From a bacterium (GTDB lineage: Bacteria > Patescibacteriota > Doudnabacteria > UBA920): 64,000 nt of DNA. Below are positions 3,015 through 46,214 of this stretch, one piece after another. A program made the position numbers and the translations under genes. How positions within the stretch are numbered: the stretch's first letter is position 1; each line of letters begins with the position of its first letter. Where the stretch lies: positions 837,747 to 901,746 of the forward strand of contig CP064996.1 of the NCBI GenBank assembly GCA_016699995.1, written 5' to 3'. The notes beneath the pieces are model-generated. The model had not been told where the DNA came from. It made no database searches and saw only the letters and a program-made list of their open reading frames with translations.

Positions 3015-3120
3015 ATTGTTGTTTAAAATAATTCCGGAGGGAAAATCATATAATTTTGCCCCCGGAATTATCCCGCATATCAATTCAACCTAAAGGAAAA
3101 ATCTGAATGCGGGAAAAACT

Positions 3121-3624: not shown

Positions 3625-3671
3625 TAAATCGGCTGGAATTCATTAACCTTATTGTACTATACAGATCGCGA

Positions 3672-4136: not shown

Positions 4137-4139
4137 ATA

Positions 4140-4994: not shown

Positions 4995-4997
4995 ATT

Positions 4998-5453: not shown

Positions 5454-5457
5454 GATA

Positions 5458-6258: not shown

Positions 6259-7568
6259 TAAAATAACCTCCCTTGCACCAAGGCGGACGCCTGGCTCTGA
6301 GCTCGGCTTAAGCTGCTATTAACGCTTTGGTTTTTAAACAGAATATTATTTATAGCTTCTCCTATTAATTCATCAAACTTTTCTTCGCTCACTTTATAAA
6401 AAGATTTAGCAGTAAGGTTTGCATGGGCGAAGACACCGATGTCCAAATCCTGGGTTTGCAGTTCTATCAAATCGCGGCGGGAGGATGGCTGCTTATCTTT
6501 GGCGTAATAGGCATCCAAGGCCTGCTTGCTGGTTGCAAATTTTAAGAAGTCCCAAGCATCTGCACTATTTTTACTTTGCTTGCTGACTACTTCTCCAAAA
6601 TAGCTGGCAAAATTCACGTTGGGTTGAGATAGATCAAACTGTGGTACCGGTGCGACATCATAATTTAAGTTTGGAGCCTTTGCATCAATTTGAGACCTAG
6701 TATAACTATAGCCATACAAAAACGCTGCGCGACCATTGGCAAAAGCATCTACCGAATAATCACTTTCCGAATTCCAGGTATAGTTCTGGCTGGACGGATT
6801 GGCAAACGAAGTATAAAACTCCATAGCTTCCACACCCGGATTAACGCTACGTCCATTACGCTGGACACTAGACGCAAAGCGCGGCGTACGACCGTCATTG
6901 GACCAAGGAACAGTGCCAGACTGGAGCATTAACAGGTACACAATATCCACTCCCCGGTTAACATTGTCATGTGTCCCCATTGCTACACCGCTGCGGTCAA
7001 AGTAGCCCTGAGAATTTTGGCTAGAAATTTTTCTCGAATCACGCGCCAGTTCATCCCAGCTTTTGGGCGGGGTGGCAATACCGGCAGTCCCTAATATATC
7101 CTTGTTGTAGTACAAGGCCAGAGAATCAACCCACATAGCAGTGCCGTAAATTTTATCGGCGCGGATAAAATCTGTACTGACCACGTCAACAAAGCCATCT
7201 CTATACTCTTTCATCGTATAAAGCTTATCCGGCGCTGGGGTAACTTTATCTAAATATTCCGGCAGCCAAGTATTATTGATAGAAAAAATATCCGGACCGG
7301 ATCCGCTCGCTAATGCATTCAGAAGATCGCTTTCGTAGTTTTCGATGTTTTTCTTAGTGTACTCGATCGTAACATTCGGCTTAACTTTTTTGTAGGCCTG
7401 AATAAGTGTATTCATCTTGTCGCTGTCAACAAAAGGCTTCCAGATACGAAGCGTTACCTTGCCTGCCTTCTGATTGCCGCCGCCGCAGCCGGCAGAAACC
7501 AAAACTAAACAACCTATCACCAAGGCGAAGGTAAATTTTTTAAAAACAGAGTTTTGATTTTTTTTCAT
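6258..7568 (-). CDS. ABC transporter substrate-binding lipoprotein (extracellular solute-binding protein, family 1-like)
   Basis: ORF 436 aa; signal peptide with lipobox LVSAGC; general solute-binding-protein-like sequence. Confidence 0.7.
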   Translation of the reverse strand: MKKNQNSVFKKFTFALVIGCLVLVSAGCGGGNQKAGKVTLRIWKPFVDSDKMNTLIQAYKKVKPNVTIEYTKKNIENYESDLLNALASGSGPDIFSINNTWLPEYLDKVTPAPDKLYTMKEYRDGFVDVVSTDFIRADKIYGTAMWVDSLALYYNKDILGTAGIATPPKSWDELARDSRKISSQNSQGYFDRSGVAMGTHDNVNRGVDIVYLLMLQSGTVPWSNDGRTPRFASSVQRNGRSVNPGVEAMEFYTSFANPSSQNYTWNSESDYSVDAFANGRAAFLYGYSYTRSQIDAKAPNLNYDVAPVPQFDLSQPNVNFASYFGEVVSKQSKNSADAWDFLKFATSKQALDAYYAKDKQPSSRRDLIELQTQDLDIGVFAHANLTAKSFYKVSEEKFDELIGEAINNILFKNQSVNSSLSRAQSQASALVQGRLF

Positions 7569-7606
7569 TTTTGTTTCTTTTATTTTAAATCACTTCGAAG
7601 GCTTTT

Positions 7607-8503
7607 TTACACCTTTAGATTTTTCAAGAACTCTGCAAATTCATCATGCAAATCGTCATGCTTTAAACCAAATTCCACAACGGCTTTGATGTATTCCAGC
7701 TTGTTGCCACAGTCGTAATACTTGCCATCTTTAACTTCTATCGCATAGCAGTCCTTATTCTGTTCTAATAAGACCTTAACTCCGTCTACATAAACCAGTT
7801 CGCCTGGGGTATTTTGCTGTTCATAACGGCGCATTGCTTCTTCCAAAGCAGGAAAATAATCGGAGGTAAACAGCATTCCAGAGACCACGGCACAATGGTC
7901 ATTTTCCATCGGTTTTCCCGGTTTTTCTATAATTTCTTCTATTTTTAAAGCATTTTCCCCGACTTTCGTACCGGCAGCATAGCCATATCTCTTATAATCA
8001 TCAGGGTTTTTGGCATCCAAGCCAGCCAAAATGGCGCTTCCGCCGTGCTGTTCATATGCCCTGATCAGCTGCTGACTGCGGCTAGGGCTGGCTTCAAAAA
8101 CATCATCCCCCCATAGCACCAAAAATGGCTCATCGCCTATAATATGGCGTGCATTCCAGATAGGAGTCGCATTGCCCAGGGGTCCTTTTTGGCGAACATA
8201 ATAGAAATTAGCCATTTCTGCAATTCGGCGAATTTCTTCTAGTTGTTCGTGCTTTCCGCCCTCTTCTAAACGTTTTTCTAACTCAAACGGGTAGTCAAAA
8301 TGGTCTTCAATATTGCGCTTGTGCCACCCTGTGACTAAAATGATATCTTCGATACCGGCAGAGACAGCGTCTTCCACCACATATTGAATGATTGGTTTGT
8401 CCACTAAAGGCAACATTTCTTTTGGCTGCGCTTTGGTAGCAGGCAAGAATCTGGTTCCGAACCCAGCAACAGGAATTACGGCTTTTCTAACTTTTTTGTG
8501 CAT
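7607..8503 (-). CDS. galU: UTP--glucose-1-phosphate uridylyltransferase
   Basis: N-terminal motif AVIPVAGFGTRFLPATKAQPKEMLPLVDKPIIQYVVEDA typical of GalU. Confidence 0.9.
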   Translation of the reverse strand: MHKKVRKAVIPVAGFGTRFLPATKAQPKEMLPLVDKPIIQYVVEDAVSAGIEDIILVTGWHKRNIEDHFDYPFELEKRLEEGGKHEQLEEIRRIAEMANFYYVRQKGPLGNATPIWNARHIIGDEPFLVLWGDDVFEASPSRSQQLIRAYEQHGGSAILAGLDAKNPDDYKRYGYAAGTKVGENALKIEEIIEKPGKPMENDHCAVVSGMLFTSDYFPALEEAMRRYEQQNTPGELVYVDGVKVLLEQNKDCYAIEVKDGKYYDCGNKLEYIKAVVEFGLKHDDLHDEFAEFLKNLKV

Positions 8504-8524
8504 ATAGTGGTATTATAGCACAAC

Positions 8525-10024
8525 CTAAATGGAATTATTTATACGATATTGTAAACTTTCTGCCAAATGGCTCGATTGAATATCTCTACTCTCCTCCAAA
8601 TCGGCAACCGTACGGGCAACCTTCAATAATCGGTTTATTGCCCGGCCAGATAAGTTGAACTGATCAGCTGCCTTTTGCAATAACTGTTCGCTGTCTGAAT
8701 CAAGTCTGCAAAACTTTTTGATCTCGTCGCCATTCATCTCGCTATTTGTTTTTATGCCCCCGAACCGACGTTGCTGAACACTCCAAGCTTTCTCGACCAA
8801 TCTTCTCATCTCTGCCGAAGTAATTTGGTTATCACTGATACTAAACTCTTCGTATTTTAACCGTGCAACTGTTAAATGCAGATCAATTCTATCCAACAAC
8901 GGACCAGAAATTTTTTTATTGTAACGGAGAACATCTACAACCCGGCAACTGCATACTAACTTTGCATCGCCATAATTTCCGCAATGACAAGGATTCTGAG
9001 CAGTAACCAAAATGAATTTGGCCGGAAAGGTTACAGTACTCCTCGCCCGCGTAATGGTAATACTTCCATCCTCCAACGGCTGGCGCAAAACTTCTAACGC
9101 ATTCCTATCAAATTCGGGCAGTTCGTCCAAAAACAAAACACCATTATGAGCCAAACTTATTTCGCCGGGCCGTGGTTTGGCTCCGCCTCCTATTAATGAC
9201 AGCATCGACGCAGTATGATGCGGCGATCGAAACGGACGGAAACGCATTCTATTGCTACTCTTGCCAGCCAAACTATGCAAATTTGCAGTTTCTATAACTT
9301 CCTCATCAGTAAGCTTAGGAAGTATCCCTGCTAGAGCCCTAGCAAGCATAGTTTTACCACTGCCCGGAGGGCCGACCATCTTGATGTTATGAAAACCGCT
9401 AGCGGCAATTAGCAAAGCTCGCTTAGCAATGCTTTGCCCGGCGATTTTTCCAAAGTCGATTTCTGACTCTAAACGAATTTCTTCTTCCTCATTTAAGCTC
9501 GGGGCGTGTAACTCTGCACCATGCACCAAATGATTTATAACTTCTTTTAAATTTTGAACAGCATATACTTTTACACCCTTAACCAAACAGGCTTCGTGAT
9601 AATTTTCTAAAGGAACGTAAACCTCGCTTAAAGATTGCTGCTTGGCAGCCAAAACCATGGAAAGCACTGCTGTACCTTTGCGTATCCGACCGTCTAGCGA
9701 TAGCTCGCCAATAAACATTTTACCCGATGGCTCAAAGACTATTATGCCGCTGGCCAGCAGTATGGATAAACATATAGGCAGATCAAAATGACTACCGACT
9801 TTTGGAATGTCCCCCGGAGCAAGGTTCACAGATATCCTAGTGGCTGGATAATCATAGCCGGAATTTTTTATTGCCGACCTTACTCTTTCCCGACTCTCTT
9901 GCACTACTGTGTCAAGCAGTCCCACTATGATAGTTGCCGGCAAACCGTTGCTGACGTCAGTTTCTATTTCCACCAGCTTCGCATAATACCCATCGGGAGT
10001 TGCAGTCAAAATTTTCTGAATCAT
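8525..10024 (-). CDS. comM: YifB/ComM family Mg-chelatase-like AAA+ ATPase
   Basis: 499 aa; Walker A GPPGSGKTMLARA; family-typical N-terminal and C-terminal regions. Confidence 0.9.
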   Translation of the reverse strand: MIQKILTATPDGYYAKLVEIETDVSNGLPATIIVGLLDTVVQESRERVRSAIKNSGYDYPATRISVNLAPGDIPKVGSHFDLPICLSILLASGIIVFEPSGKMFIGELSLDGRIRKGTAVLSMVLAAKQQSLSEVYVPLENYHEACLVKGVKVYAVQNLKEVINHLVHGAELHAPSLNEEEEIRLESEIDFGKIAGQSIAKRALLIAASGFHNIKMVGPPGSGKTMLARALAGILPKLTDEEVIETANLHSLAGKSSNRMRFRPFRSPHHTASMLSLIGGGAKPRPGEISLAHNGVLFLDELPEFDRNALEVLRQPLEDGSITITRARSTVTFPAKFILVTAQNPCHCGNYGDAKLVCSCRVVDVLRYNKKISGPLLDRIDLHLTVARLKYEEFSISDNQITSAEMRRLVEKAWSVQQRRFGGIKTNSEMNGDEIKKFCRLDSDSEQLLQKAADQFNLSGRAINRLLKVARTVADLEESRDIQSSHLAESLQYRINNSI

Positions 10025-10080
10025 AAAACCAGCATAACTGCTGGCTGCTCAAAGTCATATCAATTTTATAAAAGCATTTG

Positions 10081-10539
10081 TTAAATTTTTTCTGAATTTG
10101 TTTTCGAGACGACAACTAATATTGCTCCCAGGAAAATATAGATATCTGCCAAATTCAAAACTCCATTAAGGACAAAGATGTAATCTGTCACATAGCCAAA
10201 ATAAATTCGTTCGGCTAAGTTTGCCACTCCGCCGGAGATAATTAATCCGAAACCAAGTTTAGACAAGTTACTGAGCTTGTTCCAATAACGGATTAAATAA
10301 TAGGTCATAAACCCGAAGACCAAGAAGTACAAACTGTAAATTACTGCGAGAGGAATATTTATGCTGAACGCAAATTTTTCGTTATAAAAAATTTTCTTAT
10401 TGGAGTTTTTCACCAGTACTCTTACTACTTGTGTTAGAACGATAAACCCGATCGAGCTTATTAGCCATGAATAAAAACCGGGCGACGATTCACGCCTTCC
10501 GGTCAATTCAGAATTAGTTTGAGTAACTTCTTCGTTCAC
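10081..10539 (-). CDS. lspA: lipoprotein signal peptidase (signal peptidase II)
   Basis: 152 aa polytopic membrane protein; motifs GGVANLAERIYFGYVTDYIF and NLADIYIFLGAIL. Confidence 0.8.
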   Translation of the reverse strand: MNEEVTQTNSELTGRRESSPGFYSWLISSIGFIVLTQVVRVLVKNSNKKIFYNEKFAFSINIPLAVIYSLYFLVFGFMTYYLIRYWNKLSNLSKLGFGLIISGGVANLAERIYFGYVTDYIFVLNGVLNLADIYIFLGAILVVVSKTNSEKI

Positions 10540-10545
10540 GAAAAA

Positions 10546-10851
10546 TTAAAGTGCCTTGTCTGCCCACGGGATGGCACGCAAGCGTTCTTCAGAAATTTGA
10601 TTGCCTTCATCATCTGTGCCATAAGTACCATCTTCGATCTTCTGCAAAGCTTTGGCAATCTTTTCTAAGTCAGAAGTAATGCGCTCCGACATATCGCGGT
10701 TAACATCATCCAATTGGACTTCCGTAGCGTTTTCATCCAAGTCGTCGCCAATTTCGGAGTGGCCGCTCATGGCCGCTAAGTCGTTTTTTAAAGTTTCCTG
10801 CTCAGCCAATAGGCTAGCTTTCATTTCTGTAATAAAATCTTGAGATAACAT
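10546..10851 (-). CDS. DksA/TraR-family-like small protein lacking the zinc-finger cysteines
   Basis: 101 aa acidic coiled-coil protein; C-terminus resembles the DksA/TraR tail but with no Cys. Confidence 0.45.
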   Translation of the reverse strand: MLSQDFITEMKASLLAEQETLKNDLAAMSGHSEIGDDLDENATEVQLDDVNRDMSERITSDLEKIAKALQKIEDGTYGTDDEGNQISEERLRAIPWADKAL

Positions 10852-11469
10852 AACTATTCATTAATTACTTCTTCATTATACAAGCAAGTAGATATATCGC
10901 CAAATCTCATTTCAGCGCATTTTGGGAAATAAAAAAGCGCCCCATCATGGGCCCCAAATTTTATAAATGAACAGGCCTGATAGAGGCGCTATCTGAAAGC
11001 TTCCAGATAGTCGCCGCTCGTGCTGTAGGACCCCAACCTTTGAGATCCTAAAGCACAAGCGGTCGCTACCAACTTAATAGCTTCCAGGTTCGAGCAACAA
11101 AATGTTGCTTGATAAGCGTCTGCATTCCAATCGATGTCAAACTGCACTCCAAACTCCTCTTGTGGTCGTTAGACCTAAAACTTTTTGTTCTTTTTGTTTT
11201 TGTTTTTGAAAAATTTTTGTTGCTGTTAAGGTCAGCAAAGAACCTACATTGATTTTGGTTTTCATACAGCCCAGATTGGAGTAGGCTATGACGAGAAGTT
11301 TAAAGGAAGCCTACCTCCAAGCTCTCTAGATGCTTAGAATGGGCAGATTTCCTTAGTTCAGTTTGTTTTATATTTTGATTTCAAAGATCACTTATCGATT
11401 ACTTTTATATATTAGCAGAAATTTTTGCTTTTGTCAATTGATGCGCTTCGACCAATAACAACAAAGCAA

Positions 11470-11500
11470 AAATAAAATTTCCCCTAGTGGGGAAATTTAG
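11470..11500 (-). terminator. rho-independent terminator candidate downstream of exonuclease gene
   Basis: Minus-strand hairpin CCCCACTAGGGG followed by A/T-rich run. Confidence 0.4.
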
Positions 11501-11524
11501 TTGTCCACAAATATTTTTACAGAC

Positions 11525-13696
11525 TTAGCTAATGAGTTCTTTAGAAACAAGCACTCGGGGAAGCTTATGTCCGGAAAGTTGCTTGAGATTGAAAATGAAG
11601 TCATTTAGATTAAGGATCTTAACCAATTCTGGATAGCTTTCTGAGTAATTTGCCAACAATGACCGGATGTAAGGATGCTGTTCATCTGTCTTTGGCCAAG
11701 TTAAGTAAATAACCGTGCCACTGGGTGCGCTATACCTTTGCTTATTAATGAATTGGCTGGTTGCCAGCAGTAATGCATTAGGAAAAATGCGGAAATTTCT
11801 GAATATCTTGTTGCCGCTGCCTGAGTATTCCTGAGCAAACAGCCGATAGCTGCCAGATAAGTCGGCAAAGTGATCCTTATAGAAGGACTTTGCTCCATTT
11901 GGTCCAGGGAAGACCACCACCACAGGGAAGCTACTATCGCCAAGCTGTTCGAAAATCTCCCTGGGATTGTTTAAGTCAAATTCGATTGGTTCTTTGTCTA
12001 TCCTTACATAATTCTTAATATTATTTACAATCTCAGTATCTAGTCCTAAGCGTTCGGCTAAATAAAAAAGTAGATCTTTTTGCACCAGTGTATCCGTAAA
12101 CCTTACTGCCTTAAAACTAGACATTAAATTCGCAGCCATCTCCTTAATTTCTATAGGCTGGCTATGCAGTACCACATTCTCATCCGATAGCTCGATCCAC
12201 TTCACTAGATTCTCCTCAGATTTAAAGAATGAGTTCAAATCGTTCGTGAGCTTCTGAACTCCTTCAAATCCCTTCGCATTGGAAAGGCTCTGCAGTTTTG
12301 CCGCCAGGTTGCTGGCAGCCTGCTGAAGACGATTGTAAAACACTCCATACTTCTCTTCCAGATCAGACATGGAAATGTACTCGAGATCCTTCAGATTCTT
12401 TCTTAGGGTGATTTGTACCAACCCAAAAAACAGGTCCGTGCTAGACAATGATTCAATGACATCGCGCTTATACTTAGATTGACCCAAATCTGTTTCCGGA
12501 TTGTAGATTGACTTCAATACATAATTGAACGAGTACCAGCTAATTCTCTCTGTACTGTTATGAGTGATGAAATATTCGAAGCGTTGGAGATCGCAAATCT
12601 GCAACTTGCGATCTGGCTCTAAATTATCTTCGGCAAGCACTAATAATGTCCGAAAATCTGATGCAATAATTCTGGCATCGCTTGCCTTGTAATCCCCGCC
12701 GCAGATAAAAGTCTTAAACTGCCCGCCAAAGAAAGACAGGTTTAAATCTAAAATTGTTTTGGTTTGCCAGTTAGTATGAAGCCAAACTAAAATCTTCAAA
12801 ATAAATCTGTACTCCTCCGGTGTCTGCGCACTAGCCTTGAACTGTTTAAAACTTTCAGCATCGAATAGGTCTTTTGTTTCAAATACACCTTCTACTAATC
12901 CTGCTTGCCACAACTTTAAAACTTCCTGCTTGCTGCGCATTGCTAACAGCCATCGACCTTCCTCTTTTTGCAGAGTCTTTGCTACGCGTGATTCGTGCAA
13001 GTGATGCTTGCTATCGATAGTAATAACTTCACCCAGTGATTCAAGCTCGTCTTCTGCTAGTTCGCTGCGAGACAACGAATCATTAGATTCAAAATCCTTA
13101 TGCGTAATTTTTAGCTCTAGCAATTGCCTCCAAGAAAAATTGCCCTTATCCAAAAACTCAGCTAATTCAGACTTTAACTGATCGGAAAAATTATTATGGA
13201 TAGCAACCATCTTTTCTAACAAAGAAATAGTAGACAAGCAATCCGCCAAAGCCCTATGACTGTCTTTATGCTCAATGCCGAAATAATGCATCAGGTTTTC
13301 CAAATTATAGCTATGGTGAGTAGGGAGGATAAACTGTACCAGTTCCAAGGTATCAATAAATTCGCCGGATAGCTTTACTCCAGCCATCTCCAAAAATTTA
13401 ATATCCAGAGTAGGATTATGAGCGACCAATGTTGCACCCTGCAGTTTCTCAGTTAGAAAATCCTTAAACTCGCCAATCGACGGAGCCGTATCAATCTCTT
13501 CCTGGGTAATACCGGTTAGACCAAGAATTTTCTGGTGAACCTCAATGGTAGGCTTAAAAACCTGTGACCATGTTTCGCCAACCCTAAGACCAGAATCAGT
13601 CACATCAAAAAACGCAAACCCTATTTCTAGGATTTGTTCTTTTTCCGGGTCAAAGCCGGTAAATTCGAGGTCTATACTGCAATATTTCTTGTTCAT
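11525..13696 (-). CDS. DnaQ-like (DEDDh) 3'-5' exonuclease domain protein with large C-terminal extension
   Basis: 723 aa; N-terminal exonuclease motifs SIDLEFTG, LVAHNPTLDIKFL, HRALADC; no helicase Walker motifs seen in C-terminal part. Confidence 0.7.
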   Translation of the reverse strand: MNKKYCSIDLEFTGFDPEKEQILEIGFAFFDVTDSGLRVGETWSQVFKPTIEVHQKILGLTGITQEEIDTAPSIGEFKDFLTEKLQGATLVAHNPTLDIKFLEMAGVKLSGEFIDTLELVQFILPTHHSYNLENLMHYFGIEHKDSHRALADCLSTISLLEKMVAIHNNFSDQLKSELAEFLDKGNFSWRQLLELKITHKDFESNDSLSRSELAEDELESLGEVITIDSKHHLHESRVAKTLQKEEGRWLLAMRSKQEVLKLWQAGLVEGVFETKDLFDAESFKQFKASAQTPEEYRFILKILVWLHTNWQTKTILDLNLSFFGGQFKTFICGGDYKASDARIIASDFRTLLVLAEDNLEPDRKLQICDLQRFEYFITHNSTERISWYSFNYVLKSIYNPETDLGQSKYKRDVIESLSSTDLFFGLVQITLRKNLKDLEYISMSDLEEKYGVFYNRLQQAASNLAAKLQSLSNAKGFEGVQKLTNDLNSFFKSEENLVKWIELSDENVVLHSQPIEIKEMAANLMSSFKAVRFTDTLVQKDLLFYLAERLGLDTEIVNNIKNYVRIDKEPIEFDLNNPREIFEQLGDSSFPVVVVFPGPNGAKSFYKDHFADLSGSYRLFAQEYSGSGNKIFRNFRIFPNALLLATSQFINKQRYSAPSGTVIYLTWPKTDEQHPYIRSLLANYSESYPELVKILNLNDFIFNLKQLSGHKLPRVLVSKELIS

Positions 13697-22524: not shown

Positions 22525-22532
22525 AAATGTCT

Positions 22533-22929
22533 TTGGCGGTGTTTTCTGGACGAAGTTCGAACATTTTTTGAGCAAAACCCCCAATAAGGAAGCCAGCCCC
22601 GCCACTGCTCGGAAACCTCGCCACACCACAGAAAAATACTCTTTGCTCTTTTCATTTTGCGCGCGCCCGATTTCTTTTTCTTCTAATGAAAAGAGTATTT
22701 TTCTGCGGTGTTCTGCCTTCCAAGTATTCAGGCAGGTGGCGGGGCTGTCCTCAATTTGATTTCGAAAAGAAAAAGCGGAATTCCCCCCAAACCCCCCTTC
22801 CGCTTTTTCTTTTCTCAAACGGAACGGGAACGGAAGCAGGCGGGCAAAAATTCCTTCCCCCCAACCCCCTTCCTTTTTGCCCGCCTGCTTGGGCTTCGCC
22901 CCCAAAACTTTTCGGCGGGACGGCGGGAC
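22533..22929. repeat. IR1-L: 397-bp GC-rich structured repeat, inverted copy of 30380..30776
   Basis: Base-by-base comparison: reverse complement matches the 30380..30776 copy with about 3 mismatches; nested palindromes and C-tract loops. Confidence 0.9.
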
Positions 22930-25625
22930 TATTTAATATTAAGCTTTTCACCTCTTTTTTCAAATGCCTCTTTTCCGCCTTCAAGTTTTAGCAATTCCTC
23001 TCTGTTTTTTGTGTCCTCAATTGTCGTTTCAATAACTTCCGTTTGCCCCGATTCATTTTTCAAAATGAAAATTTTCTCTGCATCTCCGTTGATTACAAAA
23101 TTTGCGTTATGGGTGGCAAAAATGATTTGGCGATCTGATTTTTTCTCTTTCAACAAAGGCACAAGATAATTCGCAATCAACGAGCTATCAAGATGAGCCT
23201 CTGGCTCATCAATAATTAGCGGATAATTCCCAAACAAAAGTAAAATCACAACTACCGCCGTACATCTTTGTCCGAAAGACGCTTGTTCAACATCTCGATT
23301 GTCATATTTGACTTGGATTATTTTGTTTAGCTTCACATCGTACAAATGTTTATCCCTAATTGCCTGAAAGATTTGAAAATTTTTCTCTTCCTTAAAAACC
23401 TCATCAAGAAATTTGGTGTATTTTTTATCGCTCTTCTGGGATTGTTGGATAATTTTTCTAACATCGTCAAATGAGTTTTTGGAAAAAGTTTGCTCATTGC
23501 CCGTTATAAATTCGCACACTTCTTTGCCTCGTTCCGTATCGTGGTACTTTGTGAAAAAATAATTGTAAAACTCTTCTGCCAGAGCAACCCAAGCACCTTT
23601 TTCGTTGAAAGAATATTCGAGTGAAATTTGCTTGATATCTTTCCCTTGATTGTCTTCAAACTGTTTCTTCAATAAATCCTGCAAGGGTTTCAATATCTCG
23701 GTAATTTTTGTTTCGTAATTTTGTTTATTTGTGCTTAATCCAGCGACAACATTTTCGAGCGTTGCAAGCACTTTTGTTTTTGCCTCAATTTGAGCGGTTA
23801 AGCTCTTAATTTCGCTTTCCAAGTTCGTTATTTTTTGTGGAGCGGATTTGATCTGCTCAACGCTTTCGGGAGTATAACCAGCTTTCTCAATTAGTGTCTT
23901 GGCTTTAGCTTCCAATTCTGTCAGAGCTTTTTTGATCTCCGATTCTTTCTTTGCTTCCTCTGCAAACTTTTCTTCTTTCAATAATTCAACCGCTTCAGCA
24001 ATCTTGGCTACTGCAAGGTCATAGGCTTTTTCGTATTCAGTTTTTTCAACTTCTTCTTTTGATTCTTCAGATTCAGATTCTGGAATTAGATCAGACAGTG
24101 AATTTTTAAGATCAGATATATTTTCTTTCCAATCTTCTAACTCCTGCAACTCTTTTGATTTATCTGTAATTCCAGTAATAACCTCGTTATATTCTTTGCT
24201 CGATAATACTTTAACGCTACTTTCAAGCGTCCTTTTTTCTTTTTCTTTTGCAATTTTTTGATCCTCAAGAGTTTTCAAATCAGAAACGGCTTGAATAATT
24301 TGACCAAGTTTGCCTTTCAAGGATTCAATTTCTTCCTCGTATTCCTCTAAAATATTACCTGCGTGCGAATTAGCTCTGTCATAAATTGCTTGCGTAAATT
24401 TAGATTTATCCCGCGCAAAAGTTTCTATTTCGCTTTGAGCTAAAAATTCAAAAATTTCAGTTCCGCCAAAGGAAAAAATATTGTTGTCATTCGGATCAAA
24501 AGAGGGGCTTAAATTATTCCAAAACTTTTTTGGAGAATCGGGGTTGTTTGAATGCAATCCCAGAAAATTCAAAATAGTGCTTTTTCCTGATCCTCTACCA
24601 CCGATAAAACAATTAAAATATGGGCTTAAGTTATATGAGCCGTTATTCCCAGCAAAACAAAACTTATCTTCGCCAACTTTTGCGTCGGTAGGAATTTTTA
24701 GAGTAATTGTGTCAATCGTGTTTATCGGCTTTTTTGGTTTTTCCTCACCAATAAAAATTCTTGTTTCTGGCTCATAAACAATTTGCTTCAATCCCTCAAA
24801 TGTTGGCTCGGCTTTAATCCAGCAATATTTTTCAATCGGTTTTGAATCTTTATCCTTTAGCTTTCCAATTGGATAATCTTGAGCGTGTGAATCGCTTCCT
24901 TTTATACAAGCCTTTTTTCGTAAAAACCAACCGCGAAACTGATCTTGTGTAAATTTTACAGTTCCGTCAGTTTTCAAATCAGATTTCCAAAGGAAAAAAT
25001 CAATTTGTTTTTGTCGTGAAGAACCTAAAACATCAGCAGTTCTTATGTAATTACTCTTTATCCACTCATCTGAATTCGGATCAATTTCATCAATACCGCC
25101 GTATTCATCATACGGAAGCCACAATAAAAATTTATCCTTAAATTTTTCGTCCTGGTTTAATTCAGTTAGCAAAGAACCGAGGGAGATTTTCTTATCTTTC
25201 AGTTTGGCTTTGTCATCATAATCGCCACTGATTTTTGTTCCGTTGCTTTTCAACCCCTTAATTAAATTTTCAATGTCAGCAATTTGTATTTGGTCATCAA
25301 AAATAATATGAAAATTGAAATGAGTTGCCCCGTTTGTTGTGGTGTTTTTGTTTTGTACGCTTTCAGTCATTCGAAATTCAACAACGGGCAGGATTTTCTT
25401 ACCGCCAACATCTAAATCGCCCTTGTCGATTTTTTCTTTGATTTGTTTGTATCCTGCTACTGAAAAATAATCATTTATCCCAATAACATCACAATCAGCG
25501 TTTTTCAGTTGAGTTTCAAATTGATCCCAAGTACCAGAAAAGCCGTCAGAAGCAGGGCTATGCACATGCAAATCCCATTTTCTCCATTCGGAGCCGATAT
25601 TTGGTTTTGGAATCTTACTGCTCAT
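22929..25625 (-). CDS. PHP-domain phosphoesterase fused to Rad50/SMC-like ABC ATPase with long coiled-coil insert
   Basis: 898 aa; N-terminal PHP-like WDLHVHSPASDG..VIGINDY; Walker A GGRGSGKST; about 400 aa coiled coil; C-terminal signature ASFGQR, Walker B LIIDEPEAHLD, H-loop IFATHNANF. Confidence 0.8.
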   Translation of the reverse strand: MSSKIPKPNIGSEWRKWDLHVHSPASDGFSGTWDQFETQLKNADCDVIGINDYFSVAGYKQIKEKIDKGDLDVGGKKILPVVEFRMTESVQNKNTTTNGATHFNFHIIFDDQIQIADIENLIKGLKSNGTKISGDYDDKAKLKDKKISLGSLLTELNQDEKFKDKFLLWLPYDEYGGIDEIDPNSDEWIKSNYIRTADVLGSSRQKQIDFFLWKSDLKTDGTVKFTQDQFRGWFLRKKACIKGSDSHAQDYPIGKLKDKDSKPIEKYCWIKAEPTFEGLKQIVYEPETRIFIGEEKPKKPINTIDTITLKIPTDAKVGEDKFCFAGNNGSYNLSPYFNCFIGGRGSGKSTILNFLGLHSNNPDSPKKFWNNLSPSFDPNDNNIFSFGGTEIFEFLAQSEIETFARDKSKFTQAIYDRANSHAGNILEEYEEEIESLKGKLGQIIQAVSDLKTLEDQKIAKEKEKRTLESSVKVLSSKEYNEVITGITDKSKELQELEDWKENISDLKNSLSDLIPESESEESKEEVEKTEYEKAYDLAVAKIAEAVELLKEEKFAEEAKKESEIKKALTELEAKAKTLIEKAGYTPESVEQIKSAPQKITNLESEIKSLTAQIEAKTKVLATLENVVAGLSTNKQNYETKITEILKPLQDLLKKQFEDNQGKDIKQISLEYSFNEKGAWVALAEEFYNYFFTKYHDTERGKEVCEFITGNEQTFSKNSFDDVRKIIQQSQKSDKKYTKFLDEVFKEEKNFQIFQAIRDKHLYDVKLNKIIQVKYDNRDVEQASFGQRCTAVVVILLLFGNYPLIIDEPEAHLDSSLIANYLVPLLKEKKSDRQIIFATHNANFVINGDAEKIFILKNESGQTEVIETTIEDTKNREELLKLEGGKEAFEKRGEKLNIK

Positions 25626-25627
25626 AT

Positions 25628-27463
25628 TTATTCTGAAAAAATTTTCACTTTTATATCTTCCTTGAGTTTATGTATTGAATTTTCATATTCCTTTATTTGA
25701 TTTTCTCTTTCTTCAATCTTTTTCATTATCTTTTTTTGTACTTCCATTGGAGGTAACGGAAAACTAAAATTTTGGATTGCACCTAATTTGATATACGCCA
25801 TAGTATTTCCCAGTTTTTGTTGTAGAACAGAATCTTTCAAAGTGTTCTTTAACACGAAATATAAGTATTTAGGTTCAATATTAACAAAATCAGTTAGAAC
25901 ATATGTTCTTTGGTATGCTTCAAATTTACCCTTAAAATAAGTTACTGTGCCAACATCTCCGTTGCCTGCTATAAGTATCGCTTCTGCATCAAATGAAAAA
26001 ACATCACTATAAGTATGATTTTGGGCGCAAGTAAAAAAAGGGTACTTTCCATTTGGATTGCCTTCATTAACATTTTTCTTTCCCGTTCTTATTTTGCAAA
26101 TGTCGCCAAGTTTAACGCTTTCCCACTTACTTTTTCCTCGGTGGTCAGTTTGAAAATATGTTTTGTAATTTAGACTAACTTCACTGTGGTTTAATATCTC
26201 GTCTTTACTTACCCAAAAAACTTTTTTGCTTGGATTCTTTTTGCCATTTTTCCAATCAGTGATTACTTGGAGGGCTTCAGGCAAATCATTTTTTTCTATT
26301 TTTTGTCGTTTTGCACCGAGATCATAGCCGTCTGCTTCAACATTAATAAACAAAATATCTTTAACTTTTTTTGAAATTGAATTGTCAAAAAAAAGTACAC
26401 TTGTTTTAATCGTTGCGGAATATGGATTAAAAATTCCTACTGGCAAAGAAACGATCGCATATAACCCATCTTCTACCATTTTTTTTCTTAACGATTGATT
26501 AGCATTGCTTGTTTGAAACATTATTCCCTCAGGGACTACAATTCCACCTCGACCACTGATATTTAAATGTTCTATGATGTAATCAACAAACAAAACTTCT
26601 GCACGATTTGCCTGTATAGAAAATCGCTTGTGTGGCACTACTCCTCCACGAGGTGTCATAAAAGGAGGATTTGCCATTATCACATCAAAAGTTTCGTCCC
26701 AACGCTTTTCACTGGTCAGCGAATCATACTCGTGAATTTTTGGCTCTGGGAATCCGTGCAGATACATATTCACAAGCGCCAATTTCACCATATCAGGCGA
26801 AATATCATAGCCTGCCAAATTATTCATCAATTTTAATTTTTCGTCTGGCGTGAGCGGTTTTTCTTTGTTGGTTTTCAAAATGTGCTTGTAGGCAGAAATC
26901 AAAAATCCAGCCGTTCCGCAAGCGGGATCAAGAATTGTTTCGTTCTTTTTTGGATCAACAACTTCAACAATAAAATCAATAATGTGGCGAGGCGTGCGGA
27001 ATTGTCCCGCGTCGCCTTGGCTTCCGAGAATAGAAAGCAAATATTCAAAAGCATTGCCTAAATTTTCGCTGTGTTCGTAATTAAATTCGTTGATCTCTTT
27101 GAGGAATAGCGAAAGCGTGCGAGGGTCGTTGTATGGCAAAAACGCGCCTTTGAAAATATCACGGAACAATTGCGGAATATGCGGATTTTTCGACATATTC
27201 GTAATTGCTTGAACATACAAATCAAGGCGTTCTTGCCCCGAAAGTTTATTGTCCAAAAGTTTCGTCCAAGCGTATTGCGAAAATCCGTTGGCGAAAAATT
27301 TTGCCTCTCCGCCGAGTTCTTCAGATTCCTTGTCCATATCGTCCATAAACTTATAGACAAGAGCGGTCGTGATTTGTTCAACTTGAGCTTTTGGGTCTGG
27401 CACTTTACCGACAAGAATTTGTCGGGCAGAGTCTAGTTTTCGTTTTGTAGTTTGATCAAGCAT
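25628..27463 (-). CDS. hsdM: N6-adenine DNA methyltransferase (HsdM-like) fused to a single target-recognition domain
   Basis: 611 aa; AdoMet motif DPACGTAGFL, catalytic NPPF; C-terminal HsdS-like TRD plus coiled-coil tail. Confidence 0.85.
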   Translation of the reverse strand: MLDQTTKRKLDSARQILVGKVPDPKAQVEQITTALVYKFMDDMDKESEELGGEAKFFANGFSQYAWTKLLDNKLSGQERLDLYVQAITNMSKNPHIPQLFRDIFKGAFLPYNDPRTLSLFLKEINEFNYEHSENLGNAFEYLLSILGSQGDAGQFRTPRHIIDFIVEVVDPKKNETILDPACGTAGFLISAYKHILKTNKEKPLTPDEKLKLMNNLAGYDISPDMVKLALVNMYLHGFPEPKIHEYDSLTSEKRWDETFDVIMANPPFMTPRGGVVPHKRFSIQANRAEVLFVDYIIEHLNISGRGGIVVPEGIMFQTSNANQSLRKKMVEDGLYAIVSLPVGIFNPYSATIKTSVLFFDNSISKKVKDILFINVEADGYDLGAKRQKIEKNDLPEALQVITDWKNGKKNPSKKVFWVSKDEILNHSEVSLNYKTYFQTDHRGKSKWESVKLGDICKIRTGKKNVNEGNPNGKYPFFTCAQNHTYSDVFSFDAEAILIAGNGDVGTVTYFKGKFEAYQRTYVLTDFVNIEPKYLYFVLKNTLKDSVLQQKLGNTMAYIKLGAIQNFSFPLPPMEVQKKIMKKIEERENQIKEYENSIHKLKEDIKVKIFSE

Positions 27464-27473
27464 AATTTTTTGG

Positions 27474-29990
27474 TTACCTCATATAAACATTAACGGGAAC
27501 ATAGTCTTTCACATATTCAGGGACAGTTTCCCGCCAGCCGTTTAATTCCTTAAATTCCGACATTGTAAATCCAGCGTACACATTCAATTCCGCAAATTGT
27601 TTTTTGTTGATAATCTCGCGAAATTTTTCGTCTGTAACATACGCTTTCAGATAATTTTTGATATGCGGAACATATTTGCTTTCGGGCTTGTAGATTGAGA
27701 TAAACTTTTCGCATTCTTCTTCCAGTTTTTCGTCTTTGGATTTGAAAACATCAATCAAGCCGAAAGCTCTTTCCAAAAATTCACGCCAAGAAATACGGCG
27801 ATCAAGATTTTCGCTCTTGCGGATTTTTTCAAGATTCAGGAATAATTGCGGTTTGTCTTCGTATTTGTCGCGCATAATCTGCACGGCTTTGTCCCATTGC
27901 TCATTTTCCACGGCAGATTTTACTTCCGTGTCTTTTTGCAATTCTTCACGGGCTTTTTCAAAAAGTTTGCGATCAACTTTCATTCCCTCGATTCCGACAG
28001 GCGTTTCGGTAAGGGATTTTACTTTGTCGGGATTAAAAACTTCTATTTCATCAATATCAACGCCGACAGGTCCCTCTCCGCCAGTTCCTTTTTGTTTGAT
28101 TGGTAATTGCAAAATCTCGTCATAATCAAACTTTTCTTCAAAGTATTCGCAGTTTGCGAAGAAATCGAAAAATTTGAAATGATCTTTTGGCTTTTTGTGT
28201 TTCTCGCCATATTCGTCGGTATATTCAAAAGTGAATTTTCTTGTGCCTCGTCCTTTGATCTGAATAAAATCAGTCGGCGAAAAGATTGGGCGCATAAGCG
28301 CAAGATTCAAAATATCTTGGCAATCATAACCAGTCGTCATCATTCCGACAGTTACGCAAATTCTCGTTTTGCTGGATTTGTAGTTTTCCAAAAACTTGGT
28401 GTGTCCGTTTAGGTTGTTGTTGGCAAAATTGATTGTGAATTGCTGGCTGTCCGCAATATTTGAGGTGATTTGCACGGCAAAATCGGAATTGTATTTGTCG
28501 GGCCAAAGTTGGCTCGCCATTTGGTTGAGCGTTTGCGTTATTTTGGAAGCGTGCTTTTGACTGACGCAAAAGACAATAGTTTTGCCGATTTCACCGCTTA
28601 TCGGGTCTTTAAGAGAATTTTCAATGAGTGTCTGGCAAAAGACGCGATTTGTTTTTTCGGAAAAGAATTTCTTTTCAAAATCCTTTTGGAAAAATGTTTC
28701 TTCACTTTCTGTGCCATTCTCATCTTCAACCATAACCGCATAGCCCTTTTCCGATAGCAATTCGGTAGTGATGTCGGTTCGCGCGTCTGAAACGATAGGG
28801 TTGATCAAAAATCCTTCCTTTACGCCGTCAAGCAAACTGAAACGGAAAGTCGGCTCGCCATTTTTACAGCCAAAAGTCGTATAAGTGTCCAAGAGTTGCC
28901 GTCTTTCCCAAGCTCGTGGGTCTTTTTGTGATAATTTTTGCGGATCAACATTTTTCAAATAATCTTTCGGTGTTGCGGTTAAGCCCAATTTGTAGCCGAT
29001 AAAATATTCAAAAACTGCTCGCGAGTTTCCGCCTATTGCTCGGTGTGATTCATCGGCGATAATCAAATCAAAATCAGTCGGCGAGAAAAGTTTTTTATAT
29101 TTATCTTGCGCCGAAAGACTTTGAACTGTTGAAATGACAATTTCCGCTTTTTTCCAGTCGTCGCGGTTTTGCTTGTAAATAACAGAAGAAAAGTCATTGC
29201 TCAAATAGCGGACAAAGTTTTTATGGGCTTGGTCTTCCAATTCTAAACGATCAACCAAAAACAGAATTCTTTTAGCGTTGCCTGTTCGTAAAAACAGTTT
29301 GATAACGGCGGCGGAAATTAGAGTTTTTCCTGTGCCTGTCGCCATTTCAAAAAGAAAGCGATCATTTCCAGCTTCGGCGGACTTTTGCAAGGCGTGAATT
29401 GCTTTGAGTTGATACGGGCGCAAAATTCGCAAATTTTCGTCCCAAAGATATTGTTCACGAGTATCTTCTTTCTGATAACGAGGATCGTCTTTGAAATTTG
29501 GATTTTGCGTGAGGGCGATATAATCATCATTGACTTCCTCGTCTGCTAAACGCTGATTGTTGGGCTTAAAATCCTGCCTGTGCTTCAAAGATTCTTGCGT
29601 TGGAAATTCTGTGATAATTTCAGGATCGCCTCGTTCCAAATCCCAAAAATAATGAAGGTTGCCGTTTGAGAGAATTACAAAACGGGCGTTTTCAGTGTGA
29701 GCGTATTTTCTGGCTTGTTCTTTTCCGTCCAGTGGGTTTTTGTCTTCTTTTTTGGCTTCCAGAATAACGAGCGGGAAACCTTTTTCATCGAGCAATAAAA
29801 AATCAATAAAGCCGTTTTTTGTGGATTCAAAATCTTCACCAAAAGCGTCAATGTCTTTTTGGGTAAGTTTTACATTCGGTTCAAGCGAAATGTTTGCTTG
29901 TCCTTTTTCATTATCAAAAAATCGCCAGCCTGCTTGTTCAAGCAGTTTGTTTATTTTTATTCGCGCTTTTGCTTCTTTAGTATTTGCCAT
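27474..29990 (-). CDS. hsdR: restriction endonuclease R subunit (HsdR-like: PD-(D/E)xK nuclease + SF2 helicase)
   Basis: 838 aa; N-terminal nuclease FIDFLLLDEKGFPLVILEAKK; helicase motif I EMATGTGKT, motif II LIIADESHR. Confidence 0.85.
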   Translation of the reverse strand: MANTKEAKARIKINKLLEQAGWRFFDNEKGQANISLEPNVKLTQKDIDAFGEDFESTKNGFIDFLLLDEKGFPLVILEAKKEDKNPLDGKEQARKYAHTENARFVILSNGNLHYFWDLERGDPEIITEFPTQESLKHRQDFKPNNQRLADEEVNDDYIALTQNPNFKDDPRYQKEDTREQYLWDENLRILRPYQLKAIHALQKSAEAGNDRFLFEMATGTGKTLISAAVIKLFLRTGNAKRILFLVDRLELEDQAHKNFVRYLSNDFSSVIYKQNRDDWKKAEIVISTVQSLSAQDKYKKLFSPTDFDLIIADESHRAIGGNSRAVFEYFIGYKLGLTATPKDYLKNVDPQKLSQKDPRAWERRQLLDTYTTFGCKNGEPTFRFSLLDGVKEGFLINPIVSDARTDITTELLSEKGYAVMVEDENGTESEETFFQKDFEKKFFSEKTNRVFCQTLIENSLKDPISGEIGKTIVFCVSQKHASKITQTLNQMASQLWPDKYNSDFAVQITSNIADSQQFTINFANNNLNGHTKFLENYKSSKTRICVTVGMMTTGYDCQDILNLALMRPIFSPTDFIQIKGRGTRKFTFEYTDEYGEKHKKPKDHFKFFDFFANCEYFEEKFDYDEILQLPIKQKGTGGEGPVGVDIDEIEVFNPDKVKSLTETPVGIEGMKVDRKLFEKAREELQKDTEVKSAVENEQWDKAVQIMRDKYEDKPQLFLNLEKIRKSENLDRRISWREFLERAFGLIDVFKSKDEKLEEECEKFISIYKPESKYVPHIKNYLKAYVTDEKFREIINKKQFAELNVYAGFTMSEFKELNGWRETVPEYVKDYVPVNVYMR

Positions 29991-30204: not shown

Positions 30205-30263
30205 AATCGTATAGTTTTACTATTATAGTTGTATAGTATTAAAAACATCACTGATTTATAGTT

Positions 30264-30292
30264 AGTATATGGAATTTTTATCAATTAGTCAA
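30264..30292 (-). promoter_or_regulatory. sigma70-like promoter candidate for the controller-hsdR-hsdM-PHP/ABC operon (TTGACT, 17-nt spacer, TATACT)
   Basis: Hexamers on minus strand about 60 nt upstream of HTH start; leader contains ACTATA direct/inverted repeats. Confidence 0.35.
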
Positions 30293-30379
30293 ACAAAATT
30301 AGGGAGTTCCTTTGATATAACGCGCGCACGGGTGGGTGGGGCAAGCGTTATTCCTCTTTTATCCTCTCTTTTGTTTTCT

Positions 30380-30776
30380 GTCCCGCCGTCCCGCCGAAAA
30401 GTTTTGGGGGCGAAGCCCAAGCAGGCGGGCAAAAAGGAAGGGGGTTGGGGGGAAGGAATTTTTGCCCGCCTGCTTCCGATCCCGTTCCGTTTGAGAAAAG
30501 AAAAAGCGGAAGGGGGGTTTGGGGGGAATTCCGCTTTTCCTTTTCGAAATCAAATTGTGGACAGCCCCGCCACCTGCCTGAATACTTGGAAGGCAGAACA
30601 CCGCAGAAAAATACTCTTTTCATTAGAAGAAAAAGAAATCGGGCGCGCGCAAAATGAAAAGAGCAAAGAGTATTTTTCTGTGGTGTGGCGAGGTTTCCGA
30701 GCAGTGGCGGGGCTGGCTTCCTTATTGGGGGTTTTGCTCAAAAAATGTTCGAACTTCGTCCAGAAAACACCGCCAA
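30380..30776. repeat. IR1-R: 397-bp GC-rich structured repeat, inverted copy of 22533..22929
   Basis: Two long hairpins with G-tract loops (GGGGGTTGGGGGG and GGGGGGTTTGGGGGG) plus a 14-bp-arm palindrome GAAAAATACTCTTT..AAAGAGTATTTTTC. Confidence 0.9.
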
Positions 30777-30903
30777 TTTTCACTTTTTGTGAAATCGTAA
30801 GGAATTGCCTCGGCGCAAAGCGCCTCGGCATGGTATTTTTCCGCAATTTTGAAGGCATTTTTGAAATCCAAAAACAAAGTGCGGTCGGCAATGCGGAAGT
30901 TCG
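30770..30903. repeat. IR2-L: 134-bp repeat, inverted copy of 32387..32520; overlaps IR1-R by the heptamer CCGCCAA
   Basis: Exact reverse-complement match to the recombinase 3' end / tRNA-Ser junction copy. Confidence 0.85.
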
Positions 30904-31017
30904 CAGAGCGAAGCTCTGGCAAAATGAAATTTTGCAAACCAATCTTTTTTCTTTTGCTTTCAGCGAAAGGTTGAGCGCATTTTTCTTTGATTGCCCAAAA
31001 GCTAATCTAAAAACAAT

Positions 31018-32631
<1,614 letters not shown>

Positions 32632-45069: not shown

Positions 45070-45146
45070 GGGCGATTAGCTCAGTTGGTTAGAGCGTCTC
45101 GTTTACACCGAGAAGGCCAAAGGTTCGAATCCTTTATCGCCCACCA
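45070..45146 (+). tRNA. tRNA-Val (anticodon UAC)
   Basis: 77 nt; anticodon stem TCTCG/CGAGA, loop UUUACAC; T-loop GGTTCGAATCC; CCA encoded. Confidence 0.9.
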
Positions 45147-45162: not shown

Positions 45163-45448
45163 GCCCTGGTAGCTCAGTGGTAGAGCAGACGCCTGAATCT
45201 TCGGGCCATGCGAGAGTAATTTTGCAATGCAAATCGGGTGAACTCGGGGAACATCTAAATACATTTAGACAATCCCGAGCCAAGCCAAGAACGGGTTAAT
45301 ACTTCTTGGAAGGTGTAGAGACTAGTAGGTGAGCCCAACAATAATCCTACGGATAGCGCCCGACTTCCTTTCCAAAGGAAGATGATATAGTCCAAAATGA
45401 CGCAGGAAGAGCGTCGTGTCGTCAGTTCAATTCTGACCCGGGGCACCA
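45163..45448 (+). tRNA. tRNA-Phe (anticodon GAA) interrupted by a 211-nt group I intron in the anticodon loop
   Basis: 5' exon GCCCTGGTAGCTCAGTGGTAGAGCAGACGCCU; 3' exon GAAGAGCGTCGTGTCGTCAGTTCAATTCTGACCCGGGGCACCA; exons join to a canonical tRNA. Confidence 0.8.
45195..45405 (+). ncRNA. group I self-splicing intron (tRNA-type, IC3-like)
   Basis: Core elements GGTGTAGAGACTAG and GATGATATAGTCC (P7 strands GACUA/UAGUC), GAGCCAAGCC; guide sequence UCUUCGGGC pairs with both exon ends; terminal G precedes 3' exon. Confidence 0.75.
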
Positions 45449-45524: not shown

Positions 45525-46214
45525 ATGAGAAACGATAAAGAAAAGGCACTGAAACTAAGGTTAACAGGAAAAAGCTACACAGAAATAGCTCAAGTTTTAA
45601 AAATTCCCAAAAGCACCCTTTCTACTTGGTTTAAAAACTTGCAATTGTCTAAAATTGCCTCCGATAGGCTAAATGACAAAACCAAGAAGGGGGCCTTAAA
45701 AGGATTGCTCAAAAGAAATGCATTACAAACTAAGCTAGCGCATGCAAAAGCAAAAAAAATCAGATCAGCAGCCATGCTAGAAATAGGAAGACTATCTAAC
45801 AGAGAACTGTTATTGATTGGCGCAGCCTTATATTGGGGTGAGGGTCATAAACGAGCCATTATGAAGAATGGAGTTGCCCGCTCTTACCATCCTGTTAGCC
45901 TATCTAATTCCGATCCGAAACTCGTTGCTATTTTTCTCGAATTTTTAAGAAAAGTTTGCAAGATAGAAGAAAATAGACTAAAAGCTGGCCTAAGAATTTA
46001 TCAACATCAAAATCCTGAGCAGCTCTTGCAATTTTGGTCAAAATTGACTAAAATTCCTAAAGAACGTTTCGAAAAGTTCTACTATGGCGTGAGTAAATCC
46101 ACTCTAAATAAAAGGCCTTACAATGTGCTGCCTTACGGGACAATTCAGGTCAGGATAGGCGACACAGCAACTTTCCATAAGATTATGGGTTGGATAGAGG
46201 GGATTGCAAATTAA
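45525..46214 (+). CDS. HTH-domain protein, possible single-motif LAGLIDADG-like endonuclease
   Basis: 229 aa; N-terminal HTH LTGKSYTEIAQVLKIPKSTLSTWF; LLLIGAALYWGEGHK weakly resembles a LAGLIDADG motif; sits between intron-containing tRNA-Phe and tRNA-Gly. Confidence 0.4.
   Translation: MRNDKEKALKLRLTGKSYTEIAQVLKIPKSTLSTWFKNLQLSKIASDRLNDKTKKGALKGLLKRNALQTKLAHAKAKKIRSAAMLEIGRLSNRELLLIGAALYWGEGHKRAIMKNGVARSYHPVSLSNSDPKLVAIFLEFLRKVCKIEENRLKAGLRIYQHQNPEQLLQFWSKLTKIPKERFEKFYYGVSKSTLNKRPYNVLPYGTIQVRIGDTATFHKIMGWIEGIAN

Follow-up and report, generated by a model that had tools for sequence, protein, structure and literature searches.

What kind of restriction enzyme is made by a nuclease-helicase gene that is followed almost immediately by a methyltransferase gene carrying a single target-recognition domain (TRD) of its own? 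The question is raised by a locus of a bacterium of the Doudnabacteria (Patescibacteriota; UBA920; assembly GCA_016699995.1), for which a stretch of 64,000 nucleotides (nt) of contig CP064996.1, positions 837,747 to 901,746, was analyzed and is referred to here as the window. The original prediction had described the two genes as a single-chain Type ISP enzyme split into two polypeptides, with a short or half-site specificity. We found that they are the middle members of a group of four tightly packed open reading frames (ORFs) at 22.9-30.2 kb on the minus strand, encoding proteins of 69, 838, 611, and 898 amino acids (aa): a helix-turn-helix (HTH) protein, HsdR, an HsdM-half-HsdS fusion, and a TrlF-family protein. 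The gap between HsdR and the fusion is 10 nt. We consider it likely that this operon, headed by a probable controller gene, specifies a homodimeric Type I restriction-modification (RM) system that acts on a palindromic bipartite site and travels as the cargo of an integrated element. The coordinates given in the original prediction for the two ORFs were exact, and its description of the RM core held; the strand, the HTH gene, the TrlF gene, and the tRNA-Ser element were absent from it.

The 838-aa R protein has the organization of a Type I HsdR, with an N-terminal PD-(D/E)xK nuclease followed by a superfamily 2 (SF2) translocase, as had been predicted. The nuclease motif FIDFLLLDEKGFPLVILEAKK (D63...E78-x-K80) and the SF2 motifs MATGTGKT, DESH, LTATP, and QIKGRGTR were read from the translation, and Pfam agreed with this reading by matching HSDR_N/HSDR_N_2 (~1e-6), ResIII (1e-39), and Helicase_C. 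PADLOC assigned the protein to REase_I (4e-57), and the NCBIfam model for EcoAI/FtnUII R matched at 4e-74, under its cutoff. Among the PDB sequence matches of R, taken at E <= 1e-3, the best was 3H1T, the Type I HsdR of V. vulnificus YJ016 (E 2e-34). It was the sole restriction subunit of known structure in that set, which included no structure of a Type ISP enzyme. The nuclease is carried by the helicase-bearing R protein, and Pfam detected no nuclease domain in the fusion. A Type IIG or IIB identity was rejected, because the nuclease is not fused to the methylase and R has a motor.

The 611-aa protein is a gamma-class N6-adenine methylase of the HsdM type, as expected of a Type I system, and it continues into one TRD and a short helix. 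It contains the motifs DPACGTAGFL and NPPF, and Pfam recognized N6_Mtase at residues 133-441 (4e-56) and a single Methylase_S domain at residues 445-591 (8e-23), while HsdM_N scored 23.1 bits, slightly below the cutoff of 24.5. PADLOC assigned the protein to MTase_I (5e-97). In the AlphaFold2 model, with a mean predicted local distance difference test score (pLDDT) of 79.5, the TRD occupies residues 449-569 and is followed by a 38-residue helix at residues 573-610. A second TRD within the protein, to which the original prediction had tied its own refutation, was sought and not found, either in the model or by Pfam. No other TRD-like segment was present in the 64-kb window when 119 diverse TRD and helix queries were compared with its six frames, so that the absence of a separate two-TRD HsdS, also claimed originally, was borne out for the window; the sole Methylase_S domain is the one fused to M.

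A structural precedent exists for this arrangement. The top Foldseek match of the fusion was 7EEW_A, the 638-aa "intact MTase" (methyltransferase) of V. vulnificus YJ016, over 621 columns, with the TRD region aligned to residues 466-612. PMC12429846, which cites Seo et al. 2022, describes that protein as a fusion of HsdM and S1/2. The one-TRD HsdM-half-HsdS architecture has thus already been characterized structurally and is not new. The window encodes the same minimal set, an M part joined to one TRD and a helix with hsdR adjacent, and its M part also resembles classical HsdM subunits such as 5YBB, 2OKC, and EcoKI, with HsdM structures among the fold matches. Residues 573-610 aligned with conserved region 1 of relatives that have two TRDs; the terminal helix is the conserved-region helix by which half-S proteins dimerize. 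PMC12429846 also reports that single-TRD HsdS subunits dimerize and read palindromes, and that a pair of HsdM-S1/2 fusions reproduces the M2S1 assembly. Two 611-aa fusions would accordingly be expected to pair through their C-terminal helices and rebuild the M2S1 geometry with two identical TRDs, which would make the target a symmetric bipartite site and not a half-site. The expected complex, R2(M-half-S)2, would methylate and restrict this palindromic site, with HsdR supplying ATP-driven translocation and PD-(D/E)xK cleavage. The half-site specificity proposed originally is probably wrong, as it runs against the precedent of half-S and M-half-S proteins that dimerize on symmetric sites.

To place the fusion among its relatives, a protein search was carried out, which returned at least 8,000 matches; an exact look-up of the 611-aa sequence matched no recorded contig. 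Among the best 120, 47 had one TRD and a length of 611-700 aa, and 71 had two TRDs and a length of >=760 aa. Across the family alignment the M parts were 60-100% identical while the TRDs were swapped, and the TRD type of the window reappeared as TRD1 or TRD2 in two-TRD members; judged from this alignment, the family undergoes classical Type I domain shuffling. Most members (L003-L080, with two TRDs; L-numbers denote loci retrieved for comparison) combine one HsdM with a full two-TRD HsdS, with no separate hsdM nearby. The one-TRD proteins of 611-650 aa end in a complete conserved helix and are spread over many lineages, and independent samples yielded copies that were 89-100% identical. When species-representative genomes were scanned, relatives were located in at least 570 genomic stretches from Patescibacteria, Bacteroidota, Planctomycetota, Nitrospirota, Proteobacteria, and archaea, mostly in uncultivated bacteria. 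We fetched 80 of these loci, picked by M-S similarity, and an HsdR homologue lay immediately upstream of the fusion in nearly every one that had upstream DNA. Because the relatives are so numerous and HsdR nearly always precedes them, HsdR plus an HsdM-HsdS fusion is a conserved and widespread two-gene Type I design.

The four-gene cassette is not confined to candidate phyla. IncF plasmids of E. coli carry a small ORF, R, M-half-S, and TrlF between finO and repA, and this cassette was present at >=99% identity in 80 of 5,426 complete E. coli genomes; in L084, which is taken from plasmid NZ_CP116482.1, it spans 4215-11954, corresponding to positions 3024-10763 of the plasmid record. The proteins of the window are 59% (R), 45% (M-S), and 28% (TrlF) identical to those of the E. 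coli cassette. Its genes bear no other annotation than "DEAD/DEAH box helicase" for R, "N-6 DNA methylase" for M-S, and "TrlF family AAA-like ATPase" for TrlF.

The first gene of the operon ends 4 nt ahead of the R start codon and encodes a 69-aa protein that matched HTH_3 in Pfam (6e-17) and Control_protein in PADLOC (4e-12). Homologues of it were found upstream of R in L003, L004, L009, L036, L081, and L085, and similar small regulators stand at the head of related operons. From these similarities the HTH protein is probably the controller, and it would probably time expression in the manner of C proteins.

The last gene begins 2 nt after the fusion stop codon. Its product scored 464.5 bits against the TrlF model NF045780 of NCBIfam (cutoff 350) over residues 11-895, which places it in that family. 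The AlphaFold2 model (pLDDT 85) consists of an N-terminal PHP domain, an SMC/Rad50-like ATP-binding cassette (ABC) head, and a coiled coil of ~240 aa. In Foldseek searches the ATPase resembled the heads of SMC, Rad50, JetC, and AriA, and the PHP domain resembled RNase AM and the PHP domain of PolC. The PHP residues H20, H22, D245, and H247 are conserved, as are the Walker A, signature, and Walker B motifs. Assignment to Ppl (NF042955) was rejected because the score, 143 bits, is far under the cutoff of 1000; the match was best over residues 774-893. A MADS system was likewise rejected, with mad2 at 103 bits against a cutoff of 720 (NCBIfam), mad3 at 7.5e-10 (PADLOC), and no other mad genes adjacent.

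To examine the neighborhood of TrlF more widely, we counted the genes preceding it in 34 metagenomic homologues that have a co-directional upstream gene of >=200 aa (L085-L164). The upstream gene was an RM component in 24 of the 34 loci: HsdS in six, an M-S-like fusion in one, a Type IIG enzyme in three, a Type ISP enzyme in two, an N6_N4 methylase in eight, a Type III Res-like protein in two, and a HaeII endonuclease and a C5 methylase in one each. RM genes were also common directly downstream of TrlF, and in L167 (1844-10850) a classical HTH-HsdM-HsdS-HsdR operon has TrlF as its last gene. TrlF thus appears to be generally embedded in RM operons. The RM types that precede it have no common protein partner; what they share is their product, cut DNA. 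A nuclease that acts on DNA ends would fit this pattern, but TrlF may also serve as a guard or simply be located nearby. As an accessory module, TrlF would most likely act on DNA ends made by restriction, or otherwise back up the RM system. It may load on such ends, or on 3'-OH termini, and destroy the cut DNA; alternatively, it may fire if restriction is blocked. We tentatively regard TrlF as a PHP exonuclease with an SMC/Rad50-like ATPase that is a dedicated companion of RM operons, has repeatedly been recruited behind systems of Types I, IIG, ISP, II, and III, and rides here on an undescribed kind of serine-recombinase element, a proposal that we hold to be possible but somewhat doubtful.

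Several observations weigh against parts of the interpretation given above. Concerning TrlF, its identity to the E. coli protein is far lower than that of R (28% versus 59%), and its association with the RM genes may have more than one origin. TrlF also occurs without an RM neighbor, in L165 and in the trlR-trlF-trlG operon of Photorhabdus. In addition, the slot 3' of the M-S gene is variable (L001-L082): AAA_13/PrrC-like ATPases take the place of TrlF in six loci, some with a PD-(D/E)xK nuclease, and elsewhere the slot holds HerA with SIR2, OLD-TOPRIM with UvrD-like helicases, Gabija-like genes, RadC, deaminases, or ABC-3C components. With so many unrelated defense genes filling it, TrlF may be a neighboring independent system. 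Concerning the fusion, the sequence match to 7EEW had E 3e-28 over the MTase core and was weak over the TRD (E 0.045), and the V. vulnificus protein may for this reason represent a separate lineage; the dimerization of the window's own fusion is inferred from precedent. Two one-TRD loci have an ORF of 176 or 177 aa directly 3' of the fusion (L001, 11965-12498; L015, 11926-12456) that matched the second half of two-TRD proteins (E 1e-68 and 4e-89) and is either a split S or part of a frameshifted gene. A partner half-S might also be encoded elsewhere on the ~943-kb contig, of which our search covered 64 kb.

The most serious alternative concerns TrlF, which could be an independent, Ppl-like single-gene defense that shares the island with the RM genes and is not coupled to them. 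We give this reading something approaching an even chance. The partial similarity to Ppl in NCBIfam and PADLOC, the RM-less occurrences, and the varied contents of the slot all speak for it, and TrlF was present in just one of the 80 loci chosen by M-S similarity, which also counts toward its independence. It is opposed by the frequency and diversity of the RM genes upstream of TrlF, by the RM genes often found directly downstream, by the 2-nt gap in the window, by the retention of the same cassette both on plasmids of E. coli and in a bacterium of a candidate phylum, and by the classical operon of L167 that also ends in TrlF.

The other alternatives concern the enzyme itself. The fusion could form a heterodimer with another half-S or M-half-S encoded elsewhere, giving an asymmetric bipartite specificity. 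The small ORFs of L001 and L015 are what such a partner would look like, and co-expressed N- and C-terminal half-S fragments of EcoDXXI were shown to reconstitute a heterodimer (PMC3874165). We nevertheless regard this as unlikely, since the window holds no other S-like sequence and TrlF follows the fusion directly, an extra S-like ORF was found in only three of the 80 related loci (L001 and L015 being the only one-TRD loci among them), and the mobile cassette transfers between hosts as a self-contained unit.

Still less probable is the split Type ISP enzyme of the original prediction. In such a system, each unit of R and M-TRD would be a monomeric half-enzyme that methylates one strand of a short asymmetric site, and cleavage would follow the collision of two head-to-head translocating units. 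Nuclease, motor, methylase, and a single TRD do succeed one another over the two genes as in Type ISP, but the resemblance is superficial. Where Type ISP has one polypeptide, the window has two ORFs with a stop codon and the intergenic gap between them. The ISP coupler, Type_ISP_C, and the Mrr-like nuclease had no Pfam match in R or the fusion (E <= 0.01), whereas the same ISP models scored 1e-50 and 3e-108 on a genuine ISP enzyme in L128. The nuclease is HSDR_N, the best PDB match of R is the Type I subunit 3H1T, the fusion ends in the half-S dimerization helix, and close relatives with M parts 60-100% identical have the two TRDs of the ordinary Type I bipartite design. Finally, we find it hardly credible that the operon is what remains of a degenerating or inactive system, such as a two-TRD gene cut short by insertion of TrlF. 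Two-TRD forms are in the majority among the best matches (71 of 120), and decay of the carrier element is seen in L004, but the catalytic motifs of R, M, and TrlF are intact in the translations, one-TRD proteins with a complete helix recur across lineages, and the E. coli version is conserved at >=99% in 80 genomes.

The preferred reading, a homodimeric Type I system, includes its mobility, and the RM-TrlF cassette is the cargo of an element of ~10 kb that a large serine recombinase has inserted at the tRNA-Ser 3' end (Table 1). The domain set of the recombinase and a junction core shared with the tRNA 3' end are those expected of such elements. The core is present at both outer junctions and between the inner arms, and is identical to the tRNA-Ser 3' end; the 397-nt repeat brackets the cassette and the 134-nt repeat brackets the recombinase gene, the 3' end of which passes through arm b' into the tRNA gene.

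Table 1. Features of the RM-TrlF operon and of its carrier element (window coordinates).
Feature	Position	Strand	Description
Outer arm a	22533-22929		397-nt inverted repeat; abuts TrlF stop codon; ends at 7-nt core beside DUF1801 gene
TrlF-family protein, 898 aa	22929-25625	-	PHP phosphoesterase/nuclease and SMC/Rad50-like ABC ATPase
HsdM and half HsdS fusion, 611 aa	25628-27463	-	One TRD and one conserved-region helix
HsdR, 838 aa	27474-29990	-	N-terminal PD-(D/E)xK nuclease, SF2 translocase, C-terminal helical region
HTH protein, 69 aa	29995-30204	-	XRE/HTH_3 (Pfam, PADLOC); probable controller (C) protein, first operon gene
Operator-like repeats	30211-30237	-	Four ACTAT/ATAGT, read from sequence; putative
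Promoter-like site	30292-30264	-	TTGACT-17-TATACT; consensus scan, 10/12 matches; putative
Inner arm a'	30380-30776		99% complementary to arm a
Inner arm b	30770-30903		Perfect 134-nt inverted repeat; contiguous with a', common 7-nt core CCGCCAA
Large serine recombinase, 537 aa	31018-32631	+	Pfam Resolvase, Recombinase, Zn_ribbon_recom
Outer arm b'	32387-32520		Ends at core common to tRNA 3' end
tRNA-Ser(CGA)	32515-32604	-	ARAGORN; Rfam tRNA 57 bits; 3' end is the junction (attachment site)

Recombinase homologues adjoin the R/M-S cassette in L009, L036, L018, L020, L021, L023, and L028, and a fragment of one does so in L004, which is a decayed copy of the element at tRNA-Ser. The double-repeat layout recurs with other sequences and other tRNA targets in L009 (119-2184 and 10657-10990; repeats of 334 and 127 nt, tRNA-Asn, core CGGAGC) and in L036 (5368-7244 and 14671-14853; repeats of 183 and 133 nt, tRNA-Gln, core CAGC), whose recombinases are ~54% identical to that of the window. 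Because these assemblies are independent, an assembly artifact was rejected. Inverted repeats of >=40 nt were absent from L004, L020, L026, and L082. The end sequence after the last cargo gene was 91-99% conserved in L003, L004, L009, and L082, whichever gene came last. No inversion isomers were seen, with one orientation in the window, L009, L036, and L004. Identity of the repeats as a known RNA was rejected, as Rfam matched the tRNA only, and a scan of viral contigs with the recombinase gave a single match, at a contig edge and uninformative.

The junction module is present intact where the two inner arms meet, and joining of the outer arms would recreate this internal copy in the opposite orientation. 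The excised circle would then contain two inverted module copies of ~524 nt, with the cargo on an arc of 7.45 kb and the recombinase on an arc of 1.48 kb between them, and would resemble the 2-micron plasmid. Because its junction would match the internal repeat copy exactly, such a circle would escape a simple junction search. The 2-kb block at 24001-26000 has a GC content of 0.337, against 0.39-0.47 in the remaining window, which is consistent with horizontally acquired cargo.

Two predicted coding regions lie inside the inverted repeats, namely a 253-aa ORF (30269-31030, plus strand) and an N-terminal extension of the DUF1801 gene (22526-22905, minus strand). Both are of low complexity without a family match and are probably not genes; the most likely start codon of DUF1801 is the ATG at 22525-22523. 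Elsewhere in the window, Rfam matched a group I intron (RF00028, 56.9 bits; gathering score 50) at 45185-45417 on the plus strand, ~40 nt after a tRNA-Val gene (45070-45146) and followed by a 229-aa ORF (45525-46214). At 51942-52015 on the plus strand, ARAGORN also called a tRNA with a four-base anticodon (cgtc), to which it assigned no identity and which Rfam did not list at its gathering threshold.

These data bear on annotation as well as on mechanism. Public records give a very widespread Type I family no more specific labels than "DEAD/DEAH box helicase" for R and "N-6 DNA methylase" for the fusion, including on the plasmids of the 80 complete E. coli genomes, where none of the cassette genes is annotated as Type I RM; surveys of RM systems and predictions of transformation barriers probably miss the family because of these labels. 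In its one-TRD members, the family provides natural counterparts of the "primordial" half-enzyme proposed by models of Type I evolution. The adjacency of TrlF and RM genes is the most interesting lead. If the two are functionally coupled, restriction would in general have a second step, carried out by TrlF. The value of the locus lies in the prevalence and under-annotation of this Type I design, the association of TrlF with RM systems, and the unusual carrier element.

Among known systems, V. vulnificus YJ016 is the closest in design, as it has a natural HsdM joined to one TRD and one conserved-region helix and encoded with HsdR; the similarity of its M-S sequence to that of the window is modest. 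A literature search for natural systems of HsdR with an M-S fusion, or for the E. coli accessions, yielded nothing past the V. vulnificus citation, and the term "HsdMS" was set aside, as it denotes two separate genes, such as PA2735/PA2734, and not a fusion. An HsdM-half-HsdS fusion engineered by Dryden's group (Bower et al., SauSTORF499P) forms a dimer, methylates a symmetric site, and restricts when given HsdR (PMC6158711), and an M-S fusion of EcoKI with two TRDs was functional but required extra free M (PMC3510504). Both share the HsdM-S polypeptide design of the window, but are artificial and were derived from families with separate genes; while the EcoKI fusion depended on free M, the natural two-TRD relatives have no separate hsdM nearby. 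Interrupted palindromes are recognized by homodimers of half-S truncations of EcoDXXI and EcoR124I and of the natural NgoAV (PMC3874165). These proteins, together with EcoR124I-NT and "Type I 1/2" methylases such as M.AhdI, share with the window a single-TRD unit that homodimerizes, or is expected to do so, but their half-S is a separate polypeptide, whereas that of the window is part of the M polypeptide chain. Type ISP enzymes such as LlaGI and LlaBIII have the same order of nuclease, motor, gamma-class methylase, and single TRD, but each consists of one chain, recognizes an asymmetric site, and combines an Mrr-like nuclease with an ISP coupler and a TRD of the Type_ISP_C family; these domains were undetected in R and the fusion.

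For TrlF, one comparison is with Ppl, which likewise combines a PHP domain with an ABC/SMC-like ATPase and is reported to be a 3'-5' exonuclease that senses DNA 3'-OH ends (PMC12904381). The family takes its name from the "temperature restriction locus" trlR-trlF-trlG of Photorhabdus (PMC7554251). There, too, TrlF stands behind a small regulator gene, but the operon has TrlG and no RM genes, and the window has no TrlG homologue next to TrlF. EcoprrI-PrrC and RloC offer a parallel in which an accessory ATPase-nuclease gene lies within a Type I RM operon as a putative backup of restriction. PrrC, however, is an anticodon nuclease of the AAA_13 family, whereas TrlF pairs a PHP phosphoesterase with an SMC-like ATPase and stands beside many types of RM system.

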